A stretch of DNA of 64,000 nt from Schmidtea nova (Eukaryota), in the NCBI GenBank assembly GCA_044892505.1, contig CM097883.1, forward strand, positions 106,206,001 through 106,270,000. The letters run 5' to 3'. The notes under the pieces were generated by a model. The model saw only the letters and a list, made by a program, of their open reading frames with translations. It did not search any database and had not been told where the DNA came from. Both the position numbers and the translations under genes were made by a program. Shown here in pieces: positions 10,504-32,634 of the stretch (its first letter is position 1; each line of letters begins with the position of its first letter).

Positions 10504-10592
10504 TCTGTAATTTACAAATTTACCCTTGTTATATTATACGTTTATTGTTGTCGTTGATTTTTACACTTTATTTACAGGGTCGTTCACTCTGA

Positions 10593-12005: not shown

Positions 12006-12095
12006 TCTACAACAATATTTACATCAATTTCCCCATATTTTTGATTTTTTCTGGTTCTTTATTTACACGTATTTACACAATTTTCCGCTTATTCA

Positions 12096-12569: not shown

Positions 12570-13832
12570 CTATACAATCACTACTGGTTTTTCTTCGTAC
12601 AGTTCCTCGTCCTCGATCTGTACCCACATCTCTTCATGTTTTGATCGTCTTTTCAGCTCTTCTCGTACTGCTTTTGGTAGTTTTATGTTGTAATTCGTGA
12701 CCTTAACTTCTGGCCATTTTACTGCTATGGTCTTATTTCTCATGCCATATCTCCAACATACTATCATGATCGTTATCAGCGGTATACACGCTATGAATAC
12801 TCCCATGCTGATTAATCCCATTATTGTTTTCCCGATGCTCATTTTCGGAGCTTCACTTTGGTTTATCATCACGCCATATTGACCTTTCCATTCCGCTTCC
12901 CATTGTTCATATTGTTGTTGTCTCTGTCTGACTTCTTCGATCACTTTCTCTGGTTCCCATTTTTCTTGTTGATTTGGTATTGTTTCTTCCTTCTCGTTTT
13001 GTTCTCTCTTCTGACTCAATTCTCGGAATTCTAACTTTCTGATTCTCCTCGTTATCGTCGTGTTCCTTGGCGTGTAATAGGTTTCGCACCTTTCTTGTTG
13101 ATTTCCTTGTGTATCCACTTCTTCAATTGCACACACTTCGTATTCTGCGTTTGTTTTCAACTTCCTCATTTCTACCTCGATTATTTCTCCTTTGTCATCT
13201 GCGGTCTTTTGACAACTTCGTGGAGACTTTCTCATACTGTTTGGCATTAATGTCCAACAGATTTCTAGGACCTTTTTATGGATCTTCCATATTATCAACG
13301 TTATTGATTCCGGTTCGTTTTCTATTGTCGTCCCTTCTGTTGTTACCTGTTGAACTCCTTGACTGTTGGTTGTCGTGGTTTTTCTTGACTTTCTTTTCCT
13401 CTGTCGACTTCCTTCCATTTCGATCGTTCTTGTTCCGTTAATTTGCTCTGGCGTCTTGTACAGTTTGCACTCCCGGCTTCTTTGTATTATTTCCTTTATT
13501 CTTCGGATTACGCAAATTTCATATGCTTGTCCGACTTCGAATCCATTTAGTTGAAACGGGATTCCCCGTTCTCTCGTTCTGCATTGCGGTATTACGTTGT
13601 TGGTCGATATTCCGATGTATTTTCTCCAACACATCCCAATTGTTCTCCGACCAATGTTTTTTATCTCCACTGTTACTACTTCATTCGCAATCGTTTCTTG
13701 ATCTTGTTTCTTTCTTTTTGGGAACTCAATTATCTCCTTTGCTTGGAACACTTTACACTCGCTTGTTCCTGGTCTGTTTCCGTTTGCTGCTTTTTCCATG
13801 AGGCATAGTTCACATGTTTTCTCTGTTTCCAT
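12570..13832 (-). CDS. FN3-like repeat membrane protein (420 aa as annotated); in frame with the polyprotein beyond one TGA
   Basis: Repeats with pattern (I/C)W...L...YE(I/V)C...C..Y.T, TM IMGLISMGVFIACIPLITIMIVCW, cytoplasmic tail ..LYEEKPVVIV. No stop between 13937 and 13833 in the polyprotein frame. Confidence 0.72.
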   Translation of the reverse strand: METEKTCELCLMEKAANGNRPGTSECKVFQAKEIIEFPKRKKQDQETIANEVVTVEIKNIGRRTIGMCWRKYIGISTNNVIPQCRTRERGIPFQLNGFEVGQAYEICVIRRIKEIIQRSRECKLYKTPEQINGTRTIEMEGSRQRKRKSRKTTTTNSQGVQQVTTEGTTIENEPESITLIIWKIHKKVLEICWTLMPNSMRKSPRSCQKTADDKGEIIEVEMRKLKTNAEYEVCAIEEVDTQGNQQERCETYYTPRNTTITRRIRKLEFRELSQKREQNEKEETIPNQQEKWEPEKVIEEVRQRQQQYEQWEAEWKGQYGVMINQSEAPKMSIGKTIMGLISMGVFIACIPLITIMIVCWRYGMRNKTIAVKWPEVKVTNYNIKLPKAVREELKRRSKHEEMWVQIEDEELYEEKPVVIV

Positions 13833-13937
13833 TTCAGTTATCTCGATTTCCTCATTTGTCTCTGCCTCTTGACTTTCTCTTGTTTCGCTGATTCCAATTA
13901 CCTCATTGTTTCGTCCCCAACATCTTCCATTCGTTGT

Positions 13938-16900
13938 TCATTGGTCTTGGATGTTTACTAACGTCATCACGCTGATATCTATGTCCTCCATGATTCTCTT
14001 AATGAGAATTAATATTAATGCTACACATATCAATTCTGGTTGGAATGTTAATTTGCCCGCTGAATTTTTGGTTATTCTTTCTTTCTCCGTTCGGTTTCCG
14101 ATTCCTTCTTCTGCTTCAGATTGATTCTTCCCTTTCTCCGATTCCACTTCTGTTCTTCTCGTTGTCTCTTCGCTTCTTTTCCCAATCCATTTCTGTATCT
14201 TCAGCGCTTCTGTTGCTTTATATAATTGACATGCAGTTACTTGAGGTGCTTTTGGTTCTCCTCTCTGCTTTATTGCGCATATTATGTATGACTTTTCTTT
14301 CTCCAATCCTTTGATTTGGATGACGTCTCGCTTCAGATCTGACAATATACACTTCAGCGTGTCGTTTTTCTTCAGGTTTTCTTTCCAGCATATTCTTTCG
14401 TATACTTCGTTTCCTCTGATTATTTCCAGCGTGACGTATTGTTTCTTGGCTTCTCCTTGTCCGATGATTGTTATCAATATCGCAATACACAACATTTCTG
14501 GTCTCAAAAGTAGACTTCCTGTTCGTTTTCCATAATTCGTACGTTCGTCTTTCGTTCCTCTGTTTTCTCGTTCTTCTGCTTCTCCTTTCTTGTCGTTTCT
14601 TGTTGGCTTTGGTTCTTCCTGTCTTTCTTTTTCATTATCCTCTGTTCTTTTGTTGTCATTGTCTTCGTTGTTCTTTTCGTTGTTACTTTTGTCGTCGAAA
14701 TCTCTGTAACCACCCCCTGGTCCTTTGAAAATGTCGTCCTCGACATTAATTTCTTTAATCAATCTTTCATACGCTTGAACCGCGAGTGTGCTAGACTCGA
14801 ATTCCCGTATTTCCATATCTTTGGATGGTTCTATGTCTTTTAGTCTACTTTGCTTTATCGTTTCTTTGGCATCTGTCCATTCATTCACATATTTTCTGAA
14901 CAAGTCTTTCCATCTTCCCGTTCGTTCGGGTTCCTTTGGATTGTTCGTGAATTTCAAATCTCTTCTCTTCAGGAATTCTTCAACTATCTCTGGCTTTTTG
15001 TGTCTTAATAACGCGCTTCTGATACACCAATTCTGATTCTGTTCCATATGGTCATTGATCTTGAATGCCGGTTCCTTGGTGATCGGATTCACCCATGTTA
15101 GTAATGCTCTTGTCTTCTCTATGTCGTGTATCATTACTGTTAGACTGAAGTTCTTTACGTTATTTGCCAGGTATTCGATATCCTCTTGTTTATTGATGGA
15201 CTTTATGAACTTGATCATCTCGAAGTTGTTCCACTGTATTGCGATATCTATGATGGAATTGTTCTTTCCATTTTTCCCTTCGATTTTGGCTCCTGCTTCG
15301 TATAACTCGTGTAGCACTTTCAATTTCGTCTTCTTTCTTGCTGCGATTATCATGATTGTGTCTCCGTTATCATCAACCATATTCATATCTGCTTCGCACT
15401 TTACCATTGCTTTTGTTATTTCTAGCGCTTCGTTTTCTTTCTTTCGACGTAATGCCCAGTGTATCGGCAATCTCCCATCCTTTGATAATAGGAATGTTAC
15501 TGGCATTTGATTTTTGATCGTTTCTATGTCACTCTCGTTATAATCTCCTTGTGCGTATCTGTGCACTTTCTCTGTAATTGCTCCTAGTATCTCCAACGAG
15601 TTTTTATTCTCCTTGAATTCTGATAGTCTTTCCTGCGCTTTTGCTACGATTGCGTCTAGTCTCTCTTGATTATCAGCTTTTGCATTGAACAACACTGCTT
15701 TGCTTCTTATTCGCGTTTGCATCTGTTTCATTCGTTGGTCTTGATACACTGCTTGTCTGAAGAACTGTCCATATTTCAATGCTTCTATCAGCTCTTTATA
15801 TCGCTTGCTTATTTCTTTGTGCTGCTTTTGGATGTCATAAAAATGTTCGAAGCTCATATCCGGATTCCATTGCTTATCACACCATTTCTTGATTAATCCG
15901 AATAGTTCTTTCTTCCTGTCTTCCAACTTGTATTCTCTTGGGTTTTCGCTAACCCGTAACGTATCTCTCGCTATTAACACTGCAAGTGTTTTTGGATCGT
16001 ATGTTACCTCTAGTAGATGTTTCAGTAACGCATTTTCTCCCCTTATGAACACTTCATTACAATCTATGACCCACGAATCTCCTTCTGGTCGTTTCCACTT
16101 TAGCAATATTCTCCAGGTTTTACTGTTTCTTACTCCGATTGCTTGTTTCATGATCGATCCTCTAGTTAGTTCATCGATTTCCCACGTGGCATTTTCCGTA
16201 ATATACTTTAGTATTCGGTGATTTGCTCTGTCAATTGCATGATTCAAGAATGTTCGTCCTTCTTTATCCTTTGCCATCCAATTCGATCTGGTGTTTCCGA
16301 ATAACTTGATTATTTCATCGTTTCTTCCATGAATTGCTATCATCATTAGTGGAGTGATTCCTTCCCAATTCACTTTGTCAATTTCTCCTCCACCTTCGAG
16401 TATCATCTCTACGATCTCTTTCACCTTCTCGTTTCCCCCGTGCTTGATTGCATTGTGCAACGCGGTATTACCGTCTTTGTCTTGTAGATTCAATGTTTGA
16501 GGGATTTCCTCTAGCAGCGTTCTTGTTATTGGATGTGCTGTTCTATCCTTCGCATACTCCATTACATTTTTTCGAACTTCTGACAGTATATTGAAATCGT
16601 GCCACCATTTCCATTCTGGTATAATTTCTCTGGTTTTCTTTGCCAGTTCTTTGATATCTATTATCTCCCTTCGGTTGTCTTCTAGACTTGTTTGCGGCTT
16701 TTGTTGTACTCGCAACATATTGATTCTCGCCGTCTGTGATCTTGTCATCACCCGTTTCTCTGGTGATAGAGTTGCTGTCTTTGGTATTTTCCTGCATCGA
16801 CATGCATTCACGTATATTGGTCTTACCAATGGATTGTTCACCAATCGTACTCGCACATTATTTTCATTTACTGTTGTGATTTCGTATGGCCCTTTGCCTG

Positions 16901-19900
16901 GTCGTTGGAGTTTCTTGACCGTACCGGGTATTATCTCTGGTGTCTCGACTATCACCCAATCTCCAACTTTTAAATCATGTGCTTTCACATTCTTTTTCTG
17001 ATCATGCAGATCTTTGTAACTCTCTTGATAGAACTTGATGTTTAGTTCCGCCGTTTTCCAGATTTCTTGCATTCTTTCTTTGAACTTTGTAACGTAATCG
17101 TCAACCTCCATGTACTGTGATAATGGTGGTTGGTATTCCAAATCGATCGGTAAGTTGCAATCTCTTCCGTACATTAGTTGGAATGGACTTAGCTTTGTTG
17201 CCGCATGTATTGACATTCTGTATGCCATTAAACACAAGTTGATATATTCGTCCCAGTCGGTTTGATGTTTACTGACGTAATTCGACAACATGCGTATCAA
17301 TGTTCCATTGAACCTTTCTGTTTGACCGTTCGTTTGTGGATGGTATGGGGATGTTCGTAATTTCGCAATTCGGAAGTAATTCGTGACTTCGTCTAATATT
17401 TCACTCATGAAGTTGGTTCCTTGGTCCGTTAGGATTTTCTTGGGTGTTCCGTATCTGCAGCATATCTCTTCTACCAATATTCTCGCGACTGTTTTTGCTT
17501 TTTGATCTGGTATTGCGAATGCTTCTGGGAACTTTGTTAGATAGTCCGTAACTACTAAGATATACTGATTCCCCTTTAAACTTTCTGGCAATGGTCCAAC
17601 TACGTCCATTGCTATCGTTGCCATCGGTTCTGCGGGTATTGGCATTGGTTTTAGTGGTGTTTTCCACTTCGTTCCGACGTTCTTTCTTGTCGCACAGGTT
17701 AAGCAGTTCTTTATCCATTCTTTCACATCATCTTCCATGGTTGGCCAAAAATACTTTTGTCTCAATCTCCCGATTGTCTTTTTCGCTGACATATGTCCGC
17801 CTAATTTTCCGTCATGATATTGAGTCATGATTTCCTTTCGCCTATTCGCAGGTAAGCACATTAATCTTCGTTCTCCATCTTGTATCAATAACCATCCTTT
17901 TTCCATCACATATCGGTGCTGATATTTCTGCATATGTTCGCGTAACGCTTGGTCCTTGCCGAATATTTCTATTTCCCTTTCTTTCAAATACTTGCTGATC
18001 AATCCCAACTCCTCATCTTCGATCTGCTCTTTCCTTAGTTCGCTGAAATCCAGATCTTCCGCTATTAATGCACATATTTTTAGAGTATTCAGGTTCACCA
18101 ATTCTGGGAATGTAAACCTTGACATGCAATCCGCGTTTGCATTTGCTTTTCCTGCTTTAAACTTTATGAATGGCGAGTATTCCTGCAACTGCATCGCCCA
18201 ACGCATCAATCTACTTGATGATTCTTTATGTTGACCTAACCATACTAATGGTTGATGATCCGTTGTGATATATATTTCATGACCCCACAATAGGTATTTG
18301 AAATGCTTGATTGCCAATATTATCGCATAGGCTTCTCTTTCCGTGACTGAGTAATTCCTTTCATGCTTCCTGAACGTTCGACTGTAATATCCAATTACTC
18401 TTTCCTTGCCTTCTTCGTCAAATTGGCCTAGTACTGCTCCTGCTGCATATCCACTTGCATCTGTTGCCAACAGAAATGGCTTCTTAAAATCTGGATGGAC
18501 CAGTATTGGTGCTGTAATCAGCTTATCTCGTAATGTTTCAAATGCTGCTTGCTGTTCTGCTCCCCATACAAACGACACATCTTGTCTTACCAATTCTTGC
18601 ATTGGTTTTGATATTCCTGCATAGTCTTTGATAAACTTTCGATAATATCCACACAATCCCAAAAATTCTTGTATTTGAGTCACTGTCTTTGGTGGTGGAC
18701 ATTCTTTGACCTTTTCGATATTCCTTGGATCTGGTTCTTTTCCTTTTGCTGATACGATGTGACCTAAGAATGTCACTTTCTCTTTTGCCCAATCGCACTT
18801 TGACGGCTTCAGTTTCAGTTTCCACTGTCTCAATTTCACGAACACATTTCTGATGTCTTGTAAGTGATCTTCAAATGTTGCGGAGTAGATCAATAGATCG
18901 TCGATATACACCATGCATTGTTTTATGCCATGTGTTACGAAATTCATGCATCTCTGGAATGATGCTGGCGCGTTTGTTAACCCAAACGGCATTTTCTTGA
19001 ATTGGTACAGATCTCGTCCGATTGTAAATGCTGTCTTCTCTTTATCCTCGTCTTTCATTTTGATCTGCCAATATCCGCTTTTTAAATCCAGTGACGTGAA
19101 ATAAGCTGCTCCTTGTAACGTCAATAACATTTCATTTATGTCTGGCAGTGGGTACGTATCTCTTTTCGTAACTGCGTTCAATCGTCTGTAATCGATACAG
19201 AATCTCTGAGTTCCATCCTTCTTTTTCACCATCACCACTGGGAATTGCCAGGGTGAGCAACTAGGTTCGATGACCTCTGCATCTAACATCTTTTGTACCT
19301 CTTCTTCTGCCACTGCTTTTTGAGCTTCTGCCAGTTTATATGGTCTTAATGCTATTGGCGTTTCGTCCGTCAACGGTATCGTGTGTAAGGTTACGTCACA
19401 TGTTCCTAAATCCAGATCTGATGCTGCGAATATATCTTTATATTCCATCAACAGTTTCTGTAACTGTTCTTTTTGTCGTTCGTCTAACAACACACTGTCG
19501 ATTTTCCATGGTAATTCGTCTTTGCTTTTCTCGTTCTTGTCTGGTATTTCGATTTCGGACATGGGTGTCAATTTACCCAATCTCTCATTCTCGTATATTA
19601 TCTTGTCCTCTTCGTCGAAGTTTACCAGATTAATCGGTATTTCTCCTTCTTGGTTTATCGTGACCAATTCTCTTGCCATTGGTAATTCTTTCTTTGCTTC
19701 GAACTTCTTACTGGGTTCGAATATCATGTCTCCTTTTATTGTTGAATCGATCTTGACATAACACATCATTTCATGTCTCGCTGGCACTACTATTTGTTCC
19801 GCACTTGCTACTTTAACTTTCATTCTGCAGATTTTTCCTGTTCTGTCTTTTAGCTTCATTGCTCCTAGATCAATTACGATTTCCTTGAACAGGTCTGGCA

Positions 19901-22900
19901 TCAGGTCAGTTCCAATAATACATGGTACACTCAGCGATGGTATTACAGCGATGTACGTGTTGATTTCTGCCCCTCGATGCTTAATTTTTACAAACCATCT
20001 TCCGGCTACTTCTACTGTCTCTTGACTGCACGCGATTACATGTACATTCGTCTTCTCAATTTCTCCTTGGTTTTTCTCTGGTATATAGTTGATGTCGATC
20101 GCCGAAATATTCGCGCCTGTATCGATCATAGCTTCGATTTCTCTCCCGTTTATTTCTACGGTTGTTGTTAAGATCGGTCCCATATTTGTGGACATAACTG
20201 CTATCGTGTGCGTGTCTTCCAACGGGTCTACACTTCTGCATCGTTTTACTTTGCATCCTTCTGGAATTATCGGGTATATGCTTGTCATCGGCATCATCTG
20301 CATCATATTCGGCTTCGCTTTGTATATCGGTTCGTTATACATTGACTGAGGTGGAGCGCTGTATCTCCAATTCTCAACTGCACTCTTTTCGGTATACTGT
20401 GGGATCTGGTTTATATTCGCTTGTCCTCCTTGATCGTCATCGTCATCATCATTGCTTGAGTCGTCTTGTGTTCGATATCCCTTCACTCTTTCCCATAATC
20501 CTTTCCTTTCTTTCTTTAATTGTCGCCTTGCTTGCTCGTCTTGCATTATCTTTTTGAATTTCCTTCCGACATCTTCGTTTGTTCCTTTCATTTTTGCAAG
20601 TATCTTCAATAACCTCTTTATTCGATGTATGTCTTTTGAGTGTCCGTGCAACACCATCGTTTTCGCAAGGAATGGTAAAAACCCTACTACCATTTTCCAA
20701 TTCACTTTCTTTTCTCTCTTGTAGATATCGAAGCACGCTAACATTTGCGTTATTATTACTCTGACGATTTGTATTATCAATATAACACCCAGTATTCCAG
20801 CCATCATTTGTCCAAATATCAGGAATCTTCCCCACATTGCCTTCATCATGTTTTCTGTGGCTTTCTTGAAATGTGCCGGTGACAACAACAATTCGTAATT
20901 CGGTCCTTCTCTGTAATTCGTTCCTCCCGTTATCGTTACGATGTTTGACAGTAATGCTTCTCTTCTTGCCGGGAATAATATATTCTGCCTTGCTGCTTCT
21001 AAGTCCTTTGGACTATAGATTCCGTTGTTTGAGACATCTACGTCGCTGAACTGTCTATCCTTTGACAACTGCATTAGTTCGAATTCTCTTGGTGCTAATA
21101 CTTCGGTTCTTCCTGGGAACATAACCCATTTGCCATCTGGCTTCTGATAAAGCGGTCCGTACGCGTTACTACAGTTGAATGGATTTGGTTCAAATCCTGG
21201 TGGATTGATGATTCTCGTCACCGGTTGAACATATCGTACTTTTCCTTTATAATCGATTTCTAATTCATTTGTACATTGTCCAGGTTTCAACTGCGTTGTT
21301 GCTGCTAGCGATGCGTGTGTCTTTTCGCAAATATATACATACATTGCCTCTCCAACCACTCTTCCGAAATGTCCTTCTCTCAGTGGTAATAATGGCATCG
21401 CGCTATCTGGATTCGTAATCGCTACGGCCAACTTTGTCTTCAATATTTCCCGATTCAGTATACAATCGTTATTTATCAGATCATAGTACACTTTTTGCAA
21501 TGAGGCTTGTCCTCTATGGAATAAGAAATCCATTTTATTATTCACATACAAGTGTAGCTTGATATCCATTGTGTCGATCTTGGGTTTCGCATTCGGCACT
21601 TCTTGTTTCGACACGTATATTCCTGGATAATTTGTTTCGTATACTGTTGTACTGCACTTAAGGGTTGCTTTCCCTTTTATGAATCTCATTCCCACATCCT
21701 GATTTGTGGTTATCAACACTGTTGGTGTGGCTCTCATCTCTATTCGTTTTTCTCTATGATCTGGTCTCAATTGTCTTTTGTTCTCTAAAGCTTCTTTGAG
21801 ATGTTTTGCTCTAGCTTTGTCATCATCGTCCTCTTCCTGGAACGTTTTTCCTTGGATTTCGTCGAACTTTGCTCCTTGTAGCAGTTGTAATTGACATTCG
21901 TTCACTTTCGGTTTGTATACCAATGTTGACATTCCCGTTTGACACATACTCCTGTCGATTTTACACATGGATAACGTTTTCATTTCTCCGGTTGTCGGTT
22001 CGAAGAATGCTTCGTAGCTTTTCAGTTCGACTATGTACGTATCCATCACCACTAGGTTGGTTGCAGGTGCTCCGAATATTGGGTAGGTTTCTCCTTGACA
22101 GTACCCTTCTCCTCCCGTAATTCGTCCTGCTACATAATACGTCTGCTGTAACATCATTCCTGGTTTTCCTTTTATCTTGATTTTATCTCTCGTTGTTACT
22201 TCTCCATGTTTAAATAATGCTTCGCAGTCTTCCCCTTGCAACACGATTGGTTCTCTTTCTGTTCCTGGCATGACAATTGCTGAATAATGTCCTCTCCCAC
22301 AATAGAATGCGAATCTCGTCTTCTGTACCTTGCATTCATTCACCATTGTCTTTATTAGTTCTGCCTCTTGATACACGTGATACCATTGTTCTTTTTTAAT
22401 CTCTTTCAATTCTACTGGAGTTGCGTCTTTGCATTGCTCCGTACCTCTCAATGAGTACTTTTCTCCCAATTTCATTTGATCACAATCAAATACTTCGAAC
22501 GTTGTTACACCTTCTGTGCTTAACAACCATACTAGCATCATCATGATTATCGAGTTTAGATTCAACGTCGATCTTCCGTTTCCTTGCATCGTTTGTCTAT
22601 TCTCCATTTCTCTCAATACTCCCTCGAGTTTCTTTCTCATCACGTTAGAACCTTCTTTTGTCTGATTCTCTTTTATGAACTTTTCCCATCCTCCTTTTCT
22701 GAGGATATATGGTTCAATTTCTTTCTCGATAATCATCGCCGTATTCTTGATATGTCTTCCCATCGGACTTGACTTCGGACTTCCTCGGCTTAGCGTTAGC
22801 AAATTGTATATCGTATACGAGATTGCTACTAGATATTTGCTGTCCGTTTCTGCTCCGTTCAGTAACCTTTTTATCAACATCGTGGTTCCTTGCCAATCTA

Positions 22901-25900
22901 GATGATTCGATTTTGTTTTTGCCTTTATCAATTCCGGCATAATCGGTGCTATTGCATTGTGTAGCATTTTTGCCTTTGTACTGGGTTCGTTTATCCGCCA
23001 CAAATTCTTTAATTCTGGGTCAATTATCGCTAACACATCCATTATCGTTTTGGTGAGCCATTCTTCTCCTTGACAAACTTGATTCTCCTCTTTTCCTCTG
23101 ATTTCTGCGATTTTGTCTAGTTTCTTCAAGCAAATCTCCCATTGCTCTTGTCTCCTTTCTTCTCTTGTCTTTGGAATTGTTGTTGCTGGATCTATCTTTG
23201 GTCTCCCTCTTGGTCGTTTTTCCATTCCAGTTCCGGTTTCTACAAATCTCGCTGCTCTTCCGGTTTCTTCTGTAACATCTCTTCCTTCGTTCGCTCGCTG
23301 TTCTAACCATCTTTCCATTTCTTGAGTAAACTGTGGTTGTTCTTGTTCGTCTTCCGAATCGTTTACCATTTCTATGACTACCTCCTGTTCCACTCCTTGA
23401 TCGTCGATTTCTGCTGGTGACGTTATTGGCATCTCTATTATTCTGTCGAAGATATTTGCCGTTGGTTTTTGAGTTAACTTCGTTAGTTCTTCTATCGCCT
23501 CATCACTATCTGTTAGTATCTCATCGACGTCATACGCTTCTGGCGGTGTTCTCTCTCTCGTTTTTATTGGTGTTGTCCTTGCTTGTCCTGAACTTGTTCC
23601 TGGGGTCATTGTTGACTTCATCGGACTTGGTGTACTCATGCTTCCTTTCGCTTTCTTTTCCTCTTTAAACTTCAGTGGTTGACCCACTATTTGTGCCACT
23701 GTTAGCGTATTCATTAGATCCAATTGCACTGGTGTCAGCCAGATTTCCAAATTATTATCCAACGATCGTCCTTGATGTTGCAGGTGGAATGGTAGTTCAT
23801 ACATCAGTTTCTCTTTAACACTCTTCACTTTTTCGGTTAGCATCACCCAAAATTCTTCTTTTCTCTGATTCGGATACATTATCCTCAAATGTATTTTCTG
23901 TGGCGTTTCCTCCGCGAATTCTCGGTTTCTCCACTTTTTTATTACATCGTCTAGTTGCTCTGGACACCACTCGTTAACTCTCTTGTATTCTGCTATCGCT
24001 TTAGCTACTTTTCTCAAGTTCGTTATGTCTTCTCCATTTGAGATTATGAATTGTGCTAAGCCTTTTATTGTTTGTCTTTTTCCCCGAGTGTTTCCTCTCA
24101 ACAGCTCGATCAATTCACTTGTTTTCTGTTTCTCCAATTCTGCCCATATTACTGCAGTTTCTGGTCCGTCTAAGTCCGTTGGTAGTAACCTCCTTGTTAC
24201 CATACATATCCGTTTCGTATTCAGTTCATATCTGTCTTCTCCTTCCGGATCTTCTTCATATACGCCTCTTTTCACTTTCCAACATTTCTCTTTGTTATCC
24301 CATTGCTTCTCTACTGGCGTCAATCGTCGTCTGTTAAGATCCAATTCTCCTAATATTGTCTCCCATTCTGGCTTCATCTGCCAGTTCCGATAGATTTCTA
24401 CTATCTGCCTCAGCTTACGCATAACGTCCTCTTGTCGTTTCTTTTTCCTTTCCTCATCTCTTGGTGTTGCTCTTGGCACGTCATCCATTCTGATGACATG
24501 TATTGTCTGATAATTATCCCATATGCCGATTTTGTACGCTCGTCTCTCATCACGTTCGTTCAGTAGATGTTCTTTGTATTTTATCGCTATGTCATCCTCA
24601 AATTCGTCTTCCCGTTCTCGTTGCAATATCGTCTCATTGATGACCTCTACTATTTCTCCCACTTTACTATCTGGTATTACTTCAATTTGTCTTGTCTCTT
24701 CGTTCGGTAATCTCACAGTAATCATTAGATCTGATACCTCTCCTCTTTTAAACATTTCTTTTCCCATCTTTGCAATTAGCTTGTCGGTTTTGAAATTTGA
24801 ATGTCTCGTTTGACTTGTATCTCGTATGTTTTCGATACACTGTTTCAAATTCTCATACTCGCTTTTCGTCAATTCCTTTCGATGTTTCTTGATTTGTTGA
24901 ATGATCTGTTCTATCATCGTATTCAAATTCTCTGCCAAGATTCTTTCCTTTGCCTTCATCCACTGAGGTTTTATTCTCATCTCATAACACGTATTTGCTT
25001 CTCTGACGATTCCTTGTAGGTTCTCTTTCTTTTTGGTGTTGCATATAGCTAGCGTTGTTATTTCTCCTGGCCATATGCCTGTGTCTATCATATGCGTTCC
25101 TTTTCTCACCAATCCGTTTTCCGAATATATGAATTTGTCTTTGTACGAGCTTCCCAATCTGTCCTCAACCCATCTGTAAATTCCATCTGTCATTGGGTTC
25201 CTTATCCAGATTCTTGGTGAACACTCGTTTATCCATATTTGTATTACGTATTCGTTCAGTGGTTCTTTCAATAACTTCTCTATGAATTCTTGTATTACCC
25301 TCACTTCTCTTTCTTGTAACCACTCTTTATACTTCATCTGCCATACTGCTCGTATAAACTTTCTATATCGTTTCCCGTCGATAAACTCCTCGTTATGGAT
25401 TACTTCCAACGCGTTATCCATCAGCTTCTGAATTTCCTCTTCCTTTACTGACATCGTTTCTATCGTCTCGACTACTTCCATCTTTTTATCCTCGTTTTCC
25501 GGTTCCTTTAGCATGTCTCCTGCCAGACTGCTGACTTCGCTGTCGTCTTCTTCATCCGACAACTCTTGTCTTGGGTGTCTCAGCATCCCAATATGCGCGG
25601 TTGGTCTCGCTTCGTTTTTGGTAACTTCTTGTATTAGTTCATTCTCGGTTCCCGTTATTTCAGCTTTTCCCATTCTCTTTTCCAACTCGTCTATTTCTTC
25701 CAGCCGTCTTCGTCTTATTTTTCCTTTAAATATTCGACTGATCCGAGTTTGATGTTTCACTGGTGGGGGAATTTTCTCCGGTTCCACCTCTCTAATGATC
25801 ATCACGTTTATTTTCGTCTCCGTTACTCCCATATCTTCCCATATATCCGTCGTCTTCAACTTTACTTCTGGCAAATCCTCTGTTTGTAGGAATGCTTCTC

Positions 25901-27476
25901 TGGGTAGTTTCGTTACTCCCGGAATCATCTCATTTACTTTATTGAACAATCTTCCCACTTCTTCTTTTACATCATATTTGAATCGCCACACGTGATCATT
26001 CGGCATGATCACCAACATTCCTCTTTGTTTGATTCTCACTTCCTCTTCTTGATTCGTTTCTTTTTCTACTTCTTTTTCCGTTTCTGTTTCTTTTTCTACT
26101 TCTTCATCCTTTTGATTCTGCTCCGCGACTTCTACTTCCTGATTCACTTCTTCTTGTTTCTGCCCTTCGTTTCTTTTCTCTTTAACTTCTGACTCGTCTG
26201 ACTCATCCTGCTGCTTCTCTTCCATCATTGCTCGCATCATGTTGATCCTTGGATTTCCCTTTTTTAACTGTTGTAATCGTTGTTGCCTGACTTGTTCTTC
26301 TTCTCGTCGTACTCTAGCCCATTCTTGATTATGTTTCTGTTGGCTTTCTCTATTCTCTCTTTCGGCCTCAGCTTCTATTAACTGGATCATGTTTATCTTT
26401 GGTTGAGCAGCTTGCTGGCTTCCTTTTGCCATGCTTTCGATTATCTCGTGTAATCTGGATACCTCCTGTCTCAACTTAGCTTCTTTCATACTGGCTTCAT
26501 TTGCACTGCTGTTTGGGTTATTCCGTTGTTGACCCTGATTCCCATAGCTGGGTCGATTCCCGTAATTCGGTCTATTTCCACTGTTTGACCAACTTCTCTG
26601 TTGATTACAGTCTCTTGACATGTGTCCGGTTTTTCCACATGTGTAACACGTTTTCCCATAACATCGATTTTCTGAGTGACCTTTTTGTCCACACAGTTTG
26701 CAGGCTACATTCTGAAAACACTCTTGTTGCCAGTGTCCGTTTTTCCCACACGTCTGACATTGCTTATTCTGCCTGTCATTGTAACTATTTCCTCCACTCG
26801 TGTTCACCGTGATATATCCGTTATTCTTCCTCGCTGGCGGTTCTTTGAATAGTCTCTGCGAATGGGGAATACTCTGGTTCATATTTCTTTTTCCTTGTTC
26901 TTCGTCTTCTGTCGTTTTTCCCATTACCGCCGTAATTCTCATGTCATTCATTGCCATATGCAATTCGAATAGGTTGGCTGCTTCCAAGGCTTCGTCTACT
27001 GTTTTACATCCTTTGCATCCCACTTGTGCTCTGATGTCAGGTCTCCTGAGACCTCGTACGAATAACGCTGTCATTAATTCCTCATCTACTGGACTTCCTC
27101 TGTTAAATGCCAGTTTCGCCAACTTTCTTAATTCGCTTGCGTACACCGCATTTGACTCGTTTCTCCTTTGTTTTCTTGCTGAAAACTCATCGAATGCTTC
27201 ATTCAGCACTTTATTTATCCCAAACGTCTGTTGGAAGAACTCTTTGATTGCTTCCCACGTTCTGGGTGGACTACTTCCCGATCTCTTTTCAATATACAGA
27301 TCCAATGCGCTATCTTTCAAGTATAGCGGGATTCGATTTGCCAACGTTTCTGCACTCCATCCGCATATATCCACGAATATGCCAAATTCCTTTAGAAACG
27401 TGTCCAATCTACTGGCGTCTCCATTGAATGGTTCGCCCTTGAATTTTTCTCTCAGATCCTCTCTGTGATCACTCAT
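13938..27476 (-). CDS. 4512-aa Gag-accessory-Env-Pol-ankyrin polyprotein
   Basis: Single uninterrupted ORF; domains listed separately below. Confidence 0.95.
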   Translation of the reverse strand: MSDHREDLREKFKGEPFNGDASRLDTFLKEFGIFVDICGWSAETLANRIPLYLKDSALDLYIEKRSGSSPPRTWEAIKEFFQQTFGINKVLNEAFDEFSARKQRRNESNAVYASELRKLAKLAFNRGSPVDEELMTALFVRGLRRPDIRAQVGCKGCKTVDEALEAANLFELHMAMNDMRITAVMGKTTEDEEQGKRNMNQSIPHSQRLFKEPPARKNNGYITVNTSGGNSYNDRQNKQCQTCGKNGHWQQECFQNVACKLCGQKGHSENRCYGKTCYTCGKTGHMSRDCNQQRSWSNSGNRPNYGNRPSYGNQGQQRNNPNSSANEASMKEAKLRQEVSRLHEIIESMAKGSQQAAQPKINMIQLIEAEAERENRESQQKHNQEWARVRREEEQVRQQRLQQLKKGNPRINMMRAMMEEKQQDESDESEVKEKRNEGQKQEEVNQEVEVAEQNQKDEEVEKETETEKEVEKETNQEEEVRIKQRGMLVIMPNDHVWRFKYDVKEEVGRLFNKVNEMIPGVTKLPREAFLQTEDLPEVKLKTTDIWEDMGVTETKINVMIIREVEPEKIPPPVKHQTRISRIFKGKIRRRRLEEIDELEKRMGKAEITGTENELIQEVTKNEARPTAHIGMLRHPRQELSDEEDDSEVSSLAGDMLKEPENEDKKMEVVETIETMSVKEEEIQKLMDNALEVIHNEEFIDGKRYRKFIRAVWQMKYKEWLQEREVRVIQEFIEKLLKEPLNEYVIQIWINECSPRIWIRNPMTDGIYRWVEDRLGSSYKDKFIYSENGLVRKGTHMIDTGIWPGEITTLAICNTKKKENLQGIVREANTCYEMRIKPQWMKAKERILAENLNTMIEQIIQQIKKHRKELTKSEYENLKQCIENIRDTSQTRHSNFKTDKLIAKMGKEMFKRGEVSDLMITVRLPNEETRQIEVIPDSKVGEIVEVINETILQREREDEFEDDIAIKYKEHLLNERDERRAYKIGIWDNYQTIHVIRMDDVPRATPRDEERKKKRQEDVMRKLRQIVEIYRNWQMKPEWETILGELDLNRRRLTPVEKQWDNKEKCWKVKRGVYEEDPEGEDRYELNTKRICMVTRRLLPTDLDGPETAVIWAELEKQKTSELIELLRGNTRGKRQTIKGLAQFIISNGEDITNLRKVAKAIAEYKRVNEWCPEQLDDVIKKWRNREFAEETPQKIHLRIMYPNQRKEEFWVMLTEKVKSVKEKLMYELPFHLQHQGRSLDNNLEIWLTPVQLDLMNTLTVAQIVGQPLKFKEEKKAKGSMSTPSPMKSTMTPGTSSGQARTTPIKTRERTPPEAYDVDEILTDSDEAIEELTKLTQKPTANIFDRIIEMPITSPAEIDDQGVEQEVVIEMVNDSEDEQEQPQFTQEMERWLEQRANEGRDVTEETGRAARFVETGTGMEKRPRGRPKIDPATTIPKTREERRQEQWEICLKKLDKIAEIRGKEENQVCQGEEWLTKTIMDVLAIIDPELKNLWRINEPSTKAKMLHNAIAPIMPELIKAKTKSNHLDWQGTTMLIKRLLNGAETDSKYLVAISYTIYNLLTLSRGSPKSSPMGRHIKNTAMIIEKEIEPYILRKGGWEKFIKENQTKEGSNVMRKKLEGVLREMENRQTMQGNGRSTLNLNSIIMMMLVWLLSTEGVTTFEVFDCDQMKLGEKYSLRGTEQCKDATPVELKEIKKEQWYHVYQEAELIKTMVNECKVQKTRFAFYCGRGHYSAIVMPGTEREPIVLQGEDCEALFKHGEVTTRDKIKIKGKPGMMLQQTYYVAGRITGGEGYCQGETYPIFGAPATNLVVMDTYIVELKSYEAFFEPTTGEMKTLSMCKIDRSMCQTGMSTLVYKPKVNECQLQLLQGAKFDEIQGKTFQEEDDDDKARAKHLKEALENKRQLRPDHREKRIEMRATPTVLITTNQDVGMRFIKGKATLKCSTTVYETNYPGIYVSKQEVPNAKPKIDTMDIKLHLYVNNKMDFLFHRGQASLQKVYYDLINNDCILNREILKTKLAVAITNPDSAMPLLPLREGHFGRVVGEAMYVYICEKTHASLAATTQLKPGQCTNELEIDYKGKVRYVQPVTRIINPPGFEPNPFNCSNAYGPLYQKPDGKWVMFPGRTEVLAPREFELMQLSKDRQFSDVDVSNNGIYSPKDLEAARQNILFPARREALLSNIVTITGGTNYREGPNYELLLSPAHFKKATENMMKAMWGRFLIFGQMMAGILGVILIIQIVRVIITQMLACFDIYKREKKVNWKMVVGFLPFLAKTMVLHGHSKDIHRIKRLLKILAKMKGTNEDVGRKFKKIMQDEQARRQLKKERKGLWERVKGYRTQDDSSNDDDDDDQGGQANINQIPQYTEKSAVENWRYSAPPQSMYNEPIYKAKPNMMQMMPMTSIYPIIPEGCKVKRCRSVDPLEDTHTIAVMSTNMGPILTTTVEINGREIEAMIDTGANISAIDINYIPEKNQGEIEKTNVHVIACSQETVEVAGRWFVKIKHRGAEINTYIAVIPSLSVPCIIGTDLMPDLFKEIVIDLGAMKLKDRTGKICRMKVKVASAEQIVVPARHEMMCYVKIDSTIKGDMIFEPSKKFEAKKELPMARELVTINQEGEIPINLVNFDEEDKIIYENERLGKLTPMSEIEIPDKNEKSKDELPWKIDSVLLDERQKEQLQKLLMEYKDIFAASDLDLGTCDVTLHTIPLTDETPIALRPYKLAEAQKAVAEEEVQKMLDAEVIEPSCSPWQFPVVMVKKKDGTQRFCIDYRRLNAVTKRDTYPLPDINEMLLTLQGAAYFTSLDLKSGYWQIKMKDEDKEKTAFTIGRDLYQFKKMPFGLTNAPASFQRCMNFVTHGIKQCMVYIDDLLIYSATFEDHLQDIRNVFVKLRQWKLKLKPSKCDWAKEKVTFLGHIVSAKGKEPDPRNIEKVKECPPPKTVTQIQEFLGLCGYYRKFIKDYAGISKPMQELVRQDVSFVWGAEQQAAFETLRDKLITAPILVHPDFKKPFLLATDASGYAAGAVLGQFDEEGKERVIGYYSRTFRKHERNYSVTEREAYAIILAIKHFKYLLWGHEIYITTDHQPLVWLGQHKESSSRLMRWAMQLQEYSPFIKFKAGKANANADCMSRFTFPELVNLNTLKICALIAEDLDFSELRKEQIEDEELGLISKYLKEREIEIFGKDQALREHMQKYQHRYVMEKGWLLIQDGERRLMCLPANRRKEIMTQYHDGKLGGHMSAKKTIGRLRQKYFWPTMEDDVKEWIKNCLTCATRKNVGTKWKTPLKPMPIPAEPMATIAMDVVGPLPESLKGNQYILVVTDYLTKFPEAFAIPDQKAKTVARILVEEICCRYGTPKKILTDQGTNFMSEILDEVTNYFRIAKLRTSPYHPQTNGQTERFNGTLIRMLSNYVSKHQTDWDEYINLCLMAYRMSIHAATKLSPFQLMYGRDCNLPIDLEYQPPLSQYMEVDDYVTKFKERMQEIWKTAELNIKFYQESYKDLHDQKKNVKAHDLKVGDWVIVETPEIIPGTVKKLQRPGKGPYEITTVNENNVRVRLVNNPLVRPIYVNACRCRKIPKTATLSPEKRVMTRSQTARINMLRVQQKPQTSLEDNRREIIDIKELAKKTREIIPEWKWWHDFNILSEVRKNVMEYAKDRTAHPITRTLLEEIPQTLNLQDKDGNTALHNAIKHGGNEKVKEIVEMILEGGGEIDKVNWEGITPLMMIAIHGRNDEIIKLFGNTRSNWMAKDKEGRTFLNHAIDRANHRILKYITENATWEIDELTRGSIMKQAIGVRNSKTWRILLKWKRPEGDSWVIDCNEVFIRGENALLKHLLEVTYDPKTLAVLIARDTLRVSENPREYKLEDRKKELFGLIKKWCDKQWNPDMSFEHFYDIQKQHKEISKRYKELIEALKYGQFFRQAVYQDQRMKQMQTRIRSKAVLFNAKADNQERLDAIVAKAQERLSEFKENKNSLEILGAITEKVHRYAQGDYNESDIETIKNQMPVTFLLSKDGRLPIHWALRRKKENEALEITKAMVKCEADMNMVDDNGDTIMIIAARKKTKLKVLHELYEAGAKIEGKNGKNNSIIDIAIQWNNFEMIKFIKSINKQEDIEYLANNVKNFSLTVMIHDIEKTRALLTWVNPITKEPAFKINDHMEQNQNWCIRSALLRHKKPEIVEEFLKRRDLKFTNNPKEPERTGRWKDLFRKYVNEWTDAKETIKQSRLKDIEPSKDMEIREFESSTLAVQAYERLIKEINVEDDIFKGPGGGYRDFDDKSNNEKNNEDNDNKRTEDNEKERQEEPKPTRNDKKGEAEERENRGTKDERTNYGKRTGSLLLRPEMLCIAILITIIGQGEAKKQYVTLEIIRGNEVYERICWKENLKKNDTLKCILSDLKRDVIQIKGLEKEKSYIICAIKQRGEPKAPQVTACQLYKATEALKIQKWIGKRSEETTRRTEVESEKGKNQSEAEEGIGNRTEKERITKNSAGKLTFQPELICVALILILIKRIMEDIDISVMTLVNIQDQ
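15200..16500 (-). other. Two ankyrin-repeat clusters downstream of integrase (about 16200-16500 and 15200-15480)
   Basis: QDKDGNTALHNAIKHG, NWEGITPLMMIA, KDKEGRTFLNHAI, DGRLPIHWAL, VDDNGDTIMIIAA, LYEAGAKIE. Confidence 0.88.
16830..17830 (-). other. Integrase (HHCC finger, DDE core, GPY/F-like C-terminus)
   Basis: HDGKLGGH...CLTC; IAMDVVGPLP, TDQGTNF, QTNGQTERFN; KVGDWV...GKGPYEI. Confidence 0.96.
18110..18490 (-). other. RNase H domain (gypsy type)
   Basis: LATDASGYAAGAVL, NYSVTEREAYAI, TDHQPL, RLMRW, NANADCMSR. Confidence 0.96.
18740..19450 (-). other. Reverse transcriptase domain
   Basis: SPWQFPVVMVKKKDG, RFCIDYRRLN, LDLKSGYWQI, MPFGLTNAPASFQ, YIDD (18897-18908), FLGH. Confidence 0.98.
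19900..20180 (-). other. Aspartic protease (retropepsin), followed toward RT by a degenerate dUTPase-like spacer
   Basis: AMIDTGANISAI (DTG at 20115-20123) and CIIGTDL. Confidence 0.93.
20640..22560 (-). other. Envelope glycoprotein resembling chuvirus (Jingchuvirales) fusion proteins, located between Gag and protease
   Basis: Internal signal IIMMMLVWLLSTEG then FEVFDC. Cys-rich ectodomain (YCGRGHYS, GYCQG, VYETNYPGIYV, GRVVGEAMY..C, C.NEL.I.Y.G..Y..P.TRI, GIY..DL...I.FP.R). Membrane end WGRFLIFGQMMAGILGVILIIQIV. Family assignment from remembered motif similarity only. Confidence 0.78.
22670..23160 (-). other. Bcl-2-like domain within the polyprotein
   Basis: Strong BH2-like IEKEIEPYILRKGGWEKFI (GGW at 22686-22694), degenerate BH1-like GAETDSKYLVAISY, helical spacing, then a hydrophobic segment ~40 aa later. 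Confidence 0.65.
23196..23219 (-). other. AT-hook motif
   Basis: KRPRGRPK, containing the RGRP core. Confidence 0.7.
23685..24730 (-). other. Two ubiquitin-like domains (about 24485-24730 and 23685-23897) flanking a helical segment
   Basis: MITVRLPNEETRQIEVIPDSKVGEI...IKYKEHLL...QTIHVI and IHLRIMYPNQRKEEFWVMLTEKVKSVKEKL...LQHQGRSLDNN...NTLTV follow the beta-grasp pattern of ubiquitin. No diglycine end. Confidence 0.6.
26607..27476 (-). other. Gag: capsid-like domain plus three CCHC zinc knuckles (26607-26759)
   Basis: PFNGD...FL..F, LYLKDSALDLY, W..IK..F, RKQ..NES...YA.EL, FVRGL; CQTCGKNGHWQQEC, CKLCGQKGHSENRC, CYTCGKTGHMSRDC. Confidence 0.93.
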
Positions 27477-28354
27477 CCCGATTCCACTATCTTGGAATAC
27501 TGTACTAGTTTTCTTTGCTTCTAGTTCACCACTTGTTTCTGAATTCGACTCTTCTTCTTTACTACTCTCTGTTTCGTTATCTCTTGATTTGCTTCTTGTT
27601 CTGTTTTCCCTGACTAGTTCACTGTCTATCGTCTCTACTTCGTTTTGAACTTCTAGATCTTCTGGGGTTTCTTCTTGGTTCTCTTTATTACTCGAATTAT
27701 CGCTGATCTCTACTTGTTTGTTCTTTTGTTGCTTAGGCTTGTTACCTGTTCTTGTTCTTTTTGCTGCTTTTCTTTCGGCTTCCGTTAAGATTGGTATTAT
27801 ACCTGATCTTGTTTCTCGTCCCTCAATTTTGTCTATTCCTCAATTTCTTATATTCTCCACTGATTTTCTACTCTGCTTTTGCTTTGCTTCTTCTTTGATT
27901 TGTTTCCTTTGATTGCTCTGACTGCTAGATTGCCTTGAATTGTTTGATTGATTTGTTTCCTTAAAACAAATAATCACTTACACGATACGTCCCCGTTATC
28001 GTGTTTCTCGTCCCTCTCACGGGTGTAGTCATAATTCATGAAGATCCCCATTTTTCCCATTTCCCTTGATTTTAAGTCTATTTAAATTATCTATGCAGTC
28101 GTATCAATTATCTATTCTTTATCAAATACACCAATTACTTTTCCCCAGTTTCCCAATTACTTTGTCGCTCAGCGCTCTTATTATTCCCTTTACTTTTCTC
28201 AGGCTTCTCTGGCTCTGAGTTCAAATTTTCCCCTTATCTGTCGACTACTCTGTTTCTCAACTATTCGCTTTATTTCCTATTCACACTACGTTTACTACTT
28301 CATTTCAATTCTCATCTCTACTCACCTTTAATTCAAGCGACATCTCTCGTTGGC

Positions 28355-28816
28355 CTGCTGGGTTTTCTAGTCAGCGCTTTTAATCTCACCTTTTATCTCG
28401 AACTCTGTTTCTCTCAACTTCACTCATTATCTCATTAGCCTGCTGGGTTTTCCAGTCAGCGCTTTTAATCTCACCTTTTTCTTCTGCTTCATTATTCTCG
28501 ACCTCAATTGTCGTTTCATTAGCCTGCTGGGTTTTTCCAGTCAGCGCTCTTATTATCCACCCTTTATCTCTTCACTGTCGACTTTTACCTGCTCTTTACT
28601 CCGATGATCATCACTTTTGACCTGCTGGGTCTTCCAGTCAGCGTCCTCAATTTTACCACTTTATTATTACTCACTTTTATTCTCTCGATCTTTCCTGATC
28701 GTTGCCATTGACCTGCTGGGTTTTCCAGCTAGCGTCTTTACCACTTCTCCCGTCTTAACAAACCGGTTTCATTTTATTCTCATCGAATCTCATGGTCTGC
28801 TGGGTTTTCCAGTCAG
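28355..28816 (-). repeat. Six spaced copies of a 20-nt hairpin motif in the leader upstream of gag
   Basis: CTGCTGGGTTTTCCAGTCAG variants at 28355, 28440, 28524, 28622, 28713 and 28797. Confidence 0.9.
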
Positions 28817-29144
28817 CACCCTTCACTTACTCACTTTACTTTACTACTCCTCTGTATGCATACTTTCACCTCATTAGGCCACATAATCAGCTTTACTCGC
28901 ATTTATCAATACCTAGGTGCGCACCTTCAACTCTCTCGTTATTAATTCGGTTTCTTTCAACCCTTATTCCTCATTATTCGCTATTCATTTTCACTATTCA
29001 TCATTTATCCTCATTATCACTTATTCATTTCCATTATCGCTTGTTGATCTTCACTATCCGGATAGTTTTATACGTAATTTAGTCCTCATCTGCCTCACTT
29101 CGTCGTCTTTCTCGTGGGCTTTTACTCAATATTTTATTTCGAAC

Positions 29145-29780
29145 GAGAACTATGCTCACCGTTGAGAACTATGCTCACTGACGAGAACTATGCTCACTGA
29201 CGAGAACTATGCTCACTGACGAGAACTATGCTCACTGACGAGAACTATGCTCACCGACGAGAACTCTGCTCGCTGACGAGAACTATGCTCACTGACGAGA
29301 ACTATGCTCACTGACGAGAACTATGCTCACTGACGAGAACTATGCTCACTGACGAGAACTATGCTCACTGACGAGAACTATGCTCACTGACGAGAACTAT
29401 GCTCACTGACGAGAACTATGCTCACTGGCAAAACATGGTTGTTATGAGGATTCTGCTTACTGATGGAAACTCTTTGCTCCGGGGACTATGTTCCCCGATG
29501 AGAACTATGCTCACTGATGGTGACTACAGGAATTATGTTTCCTGATGAGAACTATGCTCACTACGATGACTATGTTTATTGATGAGAACTACGCTCACTG
29601 ATGAGGACTATGTTCGCTGGTCTTGTATTTATTAATGAGAACTCTGCTCACTACGGGATTTATATTTACGGACGAGAACTATGCTCACTATGATGTTGTG
29701 TTTTATGACGAGACCTACGCTCACTAGGATGTTATTTTTATGACGAGACCTATGCTCACTATGAGACCTATGCTCACGAA
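29145..29780. repeat. 19-bp tandem repeat (GAGAACTATGCTCACTGAC): 15 contiguous units (29145-29429), then degenerate spaced units
   Basis: Counted directly; unit starts at 29145+19n through 29411. Confidence 0.97.
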
Positions 29781-30478
29781 CGAAAACTCGAAATATCATC
29801 TCTCAGTGGTTGCATGTGTTGCTTCGGGATGTTCCTCCCAGTGGTCACTTATGCTTCTTCGGAGAATCTATTGTCGCGTTTCGTTAAGTTCTATCTTTCA
29901 AGAACTATGGGCAAATCCTTTCTCTTTAGGACCCCTTTTATCATTTCCTTTCTTTCAAGGAATTCGTTTAATCCTCGAGTTTTCCCTTTCGCTCGGTTCA
30001 TCTATTACACCCCTTTATTCTGTTATCTATTCATCGACTTCTCTACTTGATTTTACTTTATGCGAGCTGATTACGTGCCTTTCATCATATACCACATTTC
30101 TCTACTCATCTTACTCATTTCATTGCTTTATCTCTCTCTTTACTGATCAGTTTTAACATCCTTTTTTTATAGTTTTTCTGCGCGCGCCTAAACCTCGTTG
30201 AGTTGTCCCTACCTTTCACCCCAACCAAAATATATAAAAAGATCGCATTGGTCCACTGATGCACGATGTGGTGATCAATCACATCACAAGAGCTTTCCAA
30301 TATCCGCGATTGGCCCCTTTCTACACATTTCGGGTAAGTTGATCAGTTGGTTCCCCCCAATGGGTGCTTATCGGACTACTCGTGAGTAGCTCATAATTAC
30401 TTAGGTCATTTTTACCAAATCATCTTTGAACCCTCATAATTTCAATAACAACTGCACTTGCTCAAAACTTTATTTCTA

Positions 30479-30937
30479 CTACAAGTACACTGTTATTTTC
30501 TCGGATACGGGAAGGTTGCACATAGGACATCGTTCATTTATTTTACATTCATTACAGAATCGGAAATGCCCACATGGCAACAACATTATCTGTATCTTAT
30601 TCATTTCACAGATATAACACATCAGATATTGTCTCGTATGTTCTGTTGTTATTCTTATCCACTCATCGTGTTTTGTTGTTAACTGTTGTTCTAGCCTGTG
30701 GCACTCGATGTTCATCTCAGGGTTGTTTAATCTTTCTCTATACCATTGATATCGTGTTGCTGTATCCACTGTGTTCTTATTCTCACTTAAGCTCATCATC
30801 CTTTCAGCTCTTTCTGTGTTGTTTGTCGGTTCGTGATATTCTCCTACCTCGAGTCTTTTTAACTTTCTCGTTATTGTCTCCACTGTCTCGTGGTTTGTTT
30901 CGAAAAACGTTTGCATTTCTTTTATTTTGTTCTCCAT
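30479..30937 (-). CDS. Accessory 152-aa coiled-coil protein with C-terminal IAP/XIAP-type RING finger (no BIR)
   Basis: CYICEMNKIQIMLLPCGHFRFCNEC..NERCPMCNLPVSEKITVYL-stop matches the terminal C3HC4 RING of IAP/MDM2-like ligases. Confidence 0.85.
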   Translation of the reverse strand: MENKIKEMQTFFETNHETVETITRKLKRLEVGEYHEPTNNTERAERMMSLSENKNTVDTATRYQWYRERLNNPEMNIECHRLEQQLTTKHDEWIRITTEHTRQYLMCYICEMNKIQIMLLPCGHFRFCNECKINERCPMCNLPVSEKITVYL

Positions 30938-31466: not shown

Positions 31467-31484
31467 ATCCCGGCTGAGCCCCCA
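31467..31484 (-). promoter_or_regulatory. Primer-binding site complementary to tRNA-Pro 3' end
   Basis: Minus strand TGGGGGCTCAGCCGGGAT versus the classical tRNA-Pro PBS TGGGGGCTCGTCCGGGAT (16/18); lies just inside the 5' LTR. Confidence 0.9.
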
Positions 31485-32457: not shown

Positions 32458-32634
32458 TAACCAGGGTATTTATGCCTTGTTTGGTTTCTCAGTCCCTATT
32501 TTATTGTTAAACAACTGCACCCTCATCCTTACTCATTCCACATACATCCAAAACCAAAACAAAACCCTTTTAAATGGATACATATATTTTTGATTTACAA
32601 CAGATGTTCGTACATTGGGGTGTCGTCCTCGTGA

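Follow-up and report, generated by a model that had tools for sequence, protein, structure and literature searches.

The window, a stretch of 64,000 nucleotides from Schmidtea nova, carries a giant LTR retroelement in which an envelope-like segment (Env) is read in one frame with Gag and Pol. The locus raises the question of what this Env is, whether selection maintains it, and how a chain of this kind would be processed and used. PMC6431247 and PMC13524379 have already asked whether such elements form infectious particles and how a fusogen is processed when it is embedded in Gag-Pol. The present locus sharpens these questions, since the constraint on its Env is close to that on the reverse transcriptase (RT) and this Env most likely moved in frame into a lineage that then spread. 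It also lets cut sites, the membrane topology and a second surface protein be predicted in specific terms.

Element structure and lineage

The element lies on the minus strand and spans at least 29.4 kb, with an internal part of about 23 kb and long terminal repeats (LTRs) of about 3.25 kb, delimited as follows.

31491-34717, minus strand: 5' LTR, about 3.25 kb, from repeat identity; inner end set by eye before the primer-binding site, outer end in masked N
31466-31483, minus strand: primer-binding site, read by eye, place approximate
5303-8535, minus strand: 3' LTR with the preceding polypurine-rich tract, from repeat identity and by eye; outer end in masked N

The repeats at 5303-8514 and 31506-34717 were 99.78% identical over 3,212 nt. 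As the LTR pair, with inner ends set by eye, differed at 7 places only, the insertion was judged to be young; a target-site duplication was unreadable because both LTR outer ends enter masked N. The 18-mer of the primer-binding site, which we take to be of the tRNA-Pro type, occurred 2,940 times genome-wide. Paired LTRs with a primer-binding site and polypurine tract, and the Pfam order of protease, RT, RNase H and integrase, are those of Ty3/gypsy (Metaviridae) elements. The gypsy lineage proposed in an earlier sequence-only reading of this DNA was borne out by PDB searches with the RT-RNase H region, in which Ty3 RT was the best match (E 6e-89), followed by caulimovirus-type (2e-59) and retroviral (1e-35) enzymes. 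The Pfam and PDB matches of Pol were of the Ty3/gypsy type, not of the BEL/Pao type.

A single frame through Gag, Env and Pol

A stop-free frame of 4,633 aa was found at 13938-27839 on the minus strand, with its first Met at aa 122. It begins with Gag, followed by an accessory part of about 1,350 aa, a Bcl-2-like region, a signal, Env and a transmembrane segment (TM); protease, RT, RNase H, integrase and ankyrin repeats come after these, in that order.

13938-27476, minus strand: polyprotein, 4,512 aa from the first Met, ending in the window copy at a stop at 13938-13940
26607-27476, minus strand: Gag, with three CCHC knuckles (aa 361-411, by Pfam) and a capsid-like region (by comparison with a second family)
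23073-26606, minus strand: accessory region, about 1,180 aa, no meaningful Pfam match, pN/pS 0.11-0.28
22635-23072, minus strand: putative Bcl-2-like domain (BH1/BH2 region, GGW motif), by profile search
22500-22553, minus strand: Env internal signal peptide, likely also the Bcl-2-like tail anchor, by hydropathy and conserved in relatives
20808-22499, minus strand: Env ectodomain, predicted class III (gB / chuvirus-G type), by Pfam, profile, model and structural matches
20751-20807, minus strand: Env TM helix
20190-20750, minus strand: cytoplasmic tail or linker to protease, about 190 aa, by hydropathy
19875-20177, minus strand: aspartic protease (DTG, aa 2573), Pfam RVP E 1.2e-8
18177-19229, minus strand: RT (YIDD) and RNase H, by Pfam and PDB matches
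16770-17852, minus strand: integrase, Pfam Integrase_H2C2 and rve
15201-16502, minus strand: two ankyrin-repeat blocks, by Pfam

The stop at 13938-13940 was a place left open in all 10 copies picked for long frames, whose frames extended to about 5,085 aa. The claim that Env sits between Gag and Pol in one frame, with neither stop nor frameshift, agreed with this frame and its Pfam order, and hydropathy, motifs and Pfam all placed a signal, a Cys-bearing ectodomain and a TM after the knuckles and before the DTG protease. The gag-env-pol order thus stood, but Env does not follow Gag directly, as about 1,350 aa intervene between knuckles and signal. The segment first proposed at aa ~1640-2280 is aa 1760-2400 of the frame, because the first Met is at aa 122.

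In a second family of such elements (family B) the ORF was shorter, at about 3,400 aa, and identity to the window element was 37% in Env and 48% in RT. It showed the same one-frame order in 7/7 loci examined, unbroken through integrase in six of the seven, and the Gag capsid of the window element matched at 24-26% a family-B region that itself matches Retrotrans_gag. Among 71 scored genomic copies, which were picked on Env score, 70 had no stop inside Env. Because these copies are stop-free and family B keeps the order, the Env frame is neither chance nor an assembly error.

Env is a predicted class III fusion glycoprotein

The signal-like segment (aa 1763-1781) had a Kyte-Doolittle (KD) value of 1.52 against a threshold of 1.5, and a like hydrophobic segment preceded the motif A-[YFW]-D-C in 15/15 relatives printed. 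The ectodomain (aa 1781-2344) contained 14 Cys and one N-glycosylation sequon, and 10 Env Cys were nearly invariant among relatives. The TM helix (aa 2345-2363) reached KD 2.55; a second, weakly hydrophobic stretch after it (20643-20699) stayed under the 1.5 threshold. Hydropathy and conservation together predict a signal, an ectodomain and a single TM. A candidate furin site, REKR, was present at 21744-21755; it was not seen in family B.

Searched alone, the Env stretch matched the Pfam family Monjiviricetes_fusion (PF24664, E 6e-74), which was matched in 0/14 control genomes. With Env as the query, phmmer gave 946 matches at E <=0.001 among 1.84 billion representative sequences. The best of these were long proteins with 30-46% identity; among 18 such long relatives that were scanned, 11 had a protease or RT after Env and four had a Gag or knuckle match before it. 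After them came stand-alone proteins of about 650 aa. Of 10 looked up, two were glycoproteins of named chuviruses, Wufeng shrew chuvirus 2 and Tacheng tick virus 4, matched at E 5e-33.

Of the 39 PDB rows matched by a 115-row Env profile, 38 were herpesvirus gB, the best at E 0.0012. The AlphaFold2 model of Env, with a mean pLDDT of 89.7, contained a 48-residue central helix, and all 50 structural matches listed for it were class III fusogens. The best was gB (Z 10.7 over 414 aligned residues), but at 11% identity and with an rmsd of about 8 (7.7); Dhori virus GP (Z 6.5) and rabies G (Z 6.3) were also matched. Unlike gB and the other class III fusogens, the window Env is encoded within a retroelement polyprotein. 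Sequence family and fold both assign it to class III, and it is a predicted class III fusion glycoprotein. Similarity to viral fusion proteins, on which the sequence-only reading had staked its proposal beforehand, was thus found at the level of both PF24664 and gB.

That reading had also described Env as chuvirus-derived. The chuvirus type was upheld by the match to chuvirus G; derivation from chuviruses was not, the closest Envs being those of retroelements. A recent capture directly from a chuvirus, as has been proposed for mosquito BEL/Pao elements, would account for named chuvirus glycoproteins being among the best non-retroelement matches and for a Pfam family shared with Monjiviricetes. 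We consider such a capture very unlikely, since identity to named chuvirus G was 26-27% and confined to the C-terminal half. In an unrooted tree of that half, moreover, a branch with SH-aLRT 97 separated 17 retroelement-type Envs from the two named chuvirus rows, so that the former were not nested among the latter; the tree covers 63 of the 115 rows, six having been removed as gappy and 46 stand-alone rows left out. An ancient origin is argued in the text of PMC13524379.

Selection on Env and its persistence among copies

Persistence of Env was assessed in copies picked on RT, a sample of 40 of the 146 RT-found copies that was enriched for short frames and consisted of close relatives (RT >=95%). 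More than 90% of Env was present in 35/40 and 88% in one; in four, Gag was also missing. Gag joined to protease without Env was found in 0/40 of these copies. Across 23 RT-picked copies of the same subfamily, pN/pS against the window was 0.048 and 0.025 for the two halves of Env and 0.021 for RT, and across 17 copies of the sister subfamily it was 0.20 and 0.10 for the Env halves and 0.034 for RT. These are pooled values, all measured against the single window sequence; they share one branch and are non-independent; one pN/pS copy set, which includes the accessory region, was picked on Env score. Env is under purifying selection. As a separate observation, one sister-subfamily copy had lost some 470 nt from the last part of Env and the tail, with Gag and protease still in place.

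One frame in the DNA could nonetheless be expressed unequally. In retroviruses and in Drosophila gypsy, env is as a rule expressed from a spliced message, and if splicing or frameshifting were to yield unequal amounts of Gag, Env and Pol here, a 1:1:1 threaded polyprotein would be a minor product. The ORFs downstream of the polyprotein (10593-12023 and 9331-10533) need some such route, and weak slippery-like heptamers occur near the end of Gag, although they were counted without a chance control. A packaged message that skips Env would, however, leave Env-less Gag-protease copies, of which the RT-picked sample held none, and the frame is open across families at 37% Env identity and in long relatives. 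We therefore regard unequal expression of this kind as unlikely. Four contig sets, uninformative on expression or splicing, contained no Env-skipping joint in more than one set, the joints seen being single low-depth contigs.

Exchange of Env between subfamilies

The depth of the four contig sets was about twofold over Env, and exact 22-mer markers gave 231 matches in the genome for Env as compared with 119 for RT and 127 for capsid. Env-only or Pol-less copies were considered as the source of the extra Env depth and were ruled out: 20/20 copies fetched belonged to a recombinant subfamily (A3) with downstream Pol domains, RT being found in 19 of them. This sample was chosen by eye among the 100 Env matches listed, taking from contig C1 the first 20 that had no RT or capsid marker nearby, and marker counts put the size of A3 at about 100 copies.

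In all 20 A3 copies the Env DNA was 92-94% identical to the window, as against 72-75% for protease.

20580-22480, minus strand: tract common to the window and A3, 92-94% DNA identity with flanks at 71-80%, by sequence comparison

The tract begins just past the signal (about 22480) and ends just past the TM region (about 20580). In a three-way comparison with the sister subfamily, A2, A3 was nearer to A2 in 5/5 flanking regions (83-98% aa), whereas in Env it was nearer to the window subfamily (99% aa; pS 0.31 vs 0.69-0.87). Low pS is not inherent to Env, because the Envs of the window and A2 differed at pS 0.75. Since the flanks of A3 are A2-like and its Env is window-like, A3 most likely gained its Env in frame by template switching and then spread.

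The exchange also bears on whether Env acts as a fusogen. It could instead be a membrane scaffold for assembly at the ER or delivery of Pol, with fusion unused or limited to cell contact and no infectious particle leaving the cell. Because Env lies in cis between Gag and Pol, its stops and frameshifts kill Pol, and the frame would stay open by that alone. The literature text covered holds no assays of fusion, particles, topology or cleavage for such elements, and the lack of particle data fits a scaffold. An open frame leaves unexplained, however, the ectodomain pN/pS of 0.03-0.05, the 10 nearly invariant Cys, the full class III fold and a swap that spans ectodomain and TM and was followed by spread. 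A scaffold role thus appears quite unlikely.

Bcl-2-like region and second membrane module

The region ahead of the Env signal was examined with a profile of seven homologues, which matched Bcl-xL at E 0.003 and the Bcl-2 family in 60/60 rows shown. The family-B counterpart matched PF00452 at E 0.003, below the cut-off, and a GGW motif stood 34-63 aa ahead of the Env start in five of 15 relatives and in family B too. A phmmer search of the region against PDB gave no match, a direct BLASTP comparison of the two Bcl-2-like regions fell short of significance (E 0.064), and a single-sequence model was poor (pLDDT 48). These data weakly suggest a Bcl-2 assignment. A membrane anchor is the usual C-terminus of Bcl-2 proteins, and the Env signal peptide therefore likely doubles as the tail anchor of the Bcl-2-like domain.

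A second membrane module was recognized downstream of the ankyrin repeats.

12570-14519, minus strand: second module with signal, candidate FN3-like repeats and TM, by hydropathy and relatives; interrupted in the window copy by the stop at 13938-13940

Downstream of integrase and ankyrins, the window family, A2, family B and 4/4 relatives that extend well past integrase had a further signal, followed by a beta-rich region and a TM; the A3 module had the TM and the motif, with no clear signal in the fetched end. Numbers of repeats and hydrophobic segments varied among subfamilies. In the Atlas, FN3 was named in the 10 best named matches (10/10), with scores of <=0.85, under the 0.9 mark; the module had no Pfam match and no PDB match by phmmer. 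FN3-likeness is accordingly treated as a lead only, and the module may possibly be an attachment protein.

Proposed topology and processing

To the established domain order, fold class, Env selection and Env swap we add a mechanism that we hold to be probable, in which a young Burro-type Ty3/gypsy copy encodes an ER-threaded polyprotein with an in-frame class III fusogen, which is cut up and likely builds an enveloped particle. The hydrophobic segment after the Bcl-2-like domain would act as an internal signal, and signal peptidase would cut ahead of Env, at about aa 1781, leaving Gag, accessory region and Bcl-2-like domain tethered on the cytosolic side. The Env ectodomain would be luminal and its TM would stop transfer, so that protease, RT, RNase H, integrase and ankyrins form the cytosolic tail of Env. 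With Gag and Pol parted by the signal-peptidase cut, no Gag-Pol fusion would be packaged; Pol would instead be brought to the particle by the membrane, as the tail of Env, which is what the sequence-only reading had guessed. The second signal, with its cut predicted at about aa 4462, would export the FN3-like protein as a type I membrane protein, and the purpose is likely to be transfer between the cells of one animal, into stem or germ cells. The threading of the chain through the membrane that the sequence-only reading put forward is consistent with the hydropathy, as judged by Kyte-Doolittle only.

The element protease would likely free the cytosolic domains at sites of the form (K/R/H)-I-(N/C/G)-(M/A/V)-hydrophobic. 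This motif occurred seven times in the polyprotein compared with 0.94 in shuffles, a test that is biased because the motif was defined by eye from the same sites, and it was absent from the ectodomain (0). It was present at the RNase H/integrase border and at the integrase end, and three homologous sites were kept in the sister subfamily.

Unlikely, in our view, is the reading of Burro-type elements as live enveloped planarian viruses, in which entry would use two glycoproteins, a gB-like fusogen and an FN3-like attachment protein, made from one multi-pass polyprotein, Pol would be packaged as the tail of Env, the Bcl-2-like domain would be anchored by the Env signal, and Env cassettes would be exchanged under selection on entry.

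Relation to described elements

The gag-env-pol order is not new. An in-frame Env was described in 2019 for planarian Burro elements (PMC6431247), and GAG-ENV-POL Ty3/gypsy elements with a gB-type ENV are reported from Platyhelminthes, Nematoda and Bryozoa in the text of PMC13524379, which credits the nematode case to Sacco 2022; as the layout is in print, it will not surprise a specialist.

As in Burro1 / GYPSM1 and the Burro-like element of Dugesia tigrina, the present element is a giant gypsy-like LTR element with one ORF of about 5,000 aa, and it shares with Burro1 the three CCHC knuckles (PMC6431247). In the Burro text of that paper, as here, Env lies in frame between a BCL2-like domain (E 0.003 here) and the protease and matches mononegavirus glycoproteins, and ankyrins, MATH/TRAF and thousands of copies are common to both. 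The size of about 30 kb and multi-kb LTRs are likewise those of Burro. MATH/TRAF is placed inside ORF1 in Burro1 and upstream in D. tigrina (PMC6431247), whereas here it forms a separate ORF downstream of pol. The Burro Env was linked by HHpred to gypsy/F-type Env in PMC6431247, as opposed to class III by the fold test used here, and the Burro text makes no mention of a second C-terminal membrane module or of Env swaps. Assignment of the window element as Burro-like is well supported, and was made by architecture against published descriptions.

The "ancient errantiviruses" of PMC13524379 resemble the window element in their GAG-ENV-POL order, a gB-type ENV between signal and TM, a Ty3/gypsy Pol and many near-identical copies. 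By eye, the window Env looks most like those of Smed_errantivirus_5 and _6, whereas family B is similar to Smed_errantivirus_1. The flatworm loci given there span 12-18 kb of coordinates, in contrast to the >=29.4 kb of the window element, and the passages covered hold no discussion of one-frame processing or accessory cargo and do not use the word Burro. It describes env recombination as infrequent but likely within a host; one clean swap was mapped here. The mosquito BEL/Pao elements for which the same text cites Dezordi 2020 (PMC7642597) carry a chuvirus-like glycoprotein of the same family, but Pol here is Ty3/gypsy, with an RT closest to Ty3. The present analysis adds the Env swap and the lack of an Env-less copy among 40. 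It also adds the selection data on Env, the reading of the signal as a Bcl-2 anchor and the second membrane module, and these three were not found in the running text of the papers covered.

Separate ORFs and neighbouring sequences

Four further ORFs belong to the element.

30479-30952, minus strand: upstream ORF ending in an IAP-type RING finger, Pfam zf-C3HC4_3 E 2.7e-9
10593-12023, minus strand: downstream ORF with RING, TRAF zinc finger and MATH (whole TRAF-like protein), MATH_2 E 2.9e-26
9331-10533, minus strand: coiled-coil-like ORF, no Pfam match, present in 10/10 copies
8733-9263, minus strand: small ORF with signal-like N-terminus and hydrophobic segment, by hydropathy; no Pfam match over cut-off

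Burro elements carry BIR, ubiquitin/SUMO-like and dUTPase-like domains (PMC6431247), and a study cited in PMC13465017 found that Burro1 IAP protects planarian stem cells. By Pfam alone, none of these three domain types was detected in the ORFs scanned here; the IAP-type RING was present. Polyprotein aa ~605-690, 1040-1115 and 1315-1390 appeared ubiquitin-like by eye, as reported for Burro, with no Pfam match. Family B had no ankyrin or TRAF match, and its polyprotein is followed by an ORF of 470-480 aa that is DEDDh exonuclease-like by eye, again with no Pfam match.

Several Env relatives carried two or three protease-like domains after Env. One Env-Pol polyprotein relative is labelled Flavobacteriaceae in NCBI, a label that likely reflects a mis-binned animal contig. 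Inside the LTRs, ORFs of 197-219 aa were observed at 6432-7091, 32635-33294 and 31876-32469 (all minus strand; no Pfam match over cut-off), and the 5' leader contained tandem arrays at 29086-29790 and 28345-28836, with units of 19 nt and 85-97 nt, respectively. Beside the element, on the plus strand, a DNA polymerase B of organellar/viral type (E 1.5e-32) was found at 1687-4674, with a second partial copy at 2-664, and this neighbour is possibly a Polinton-like element.
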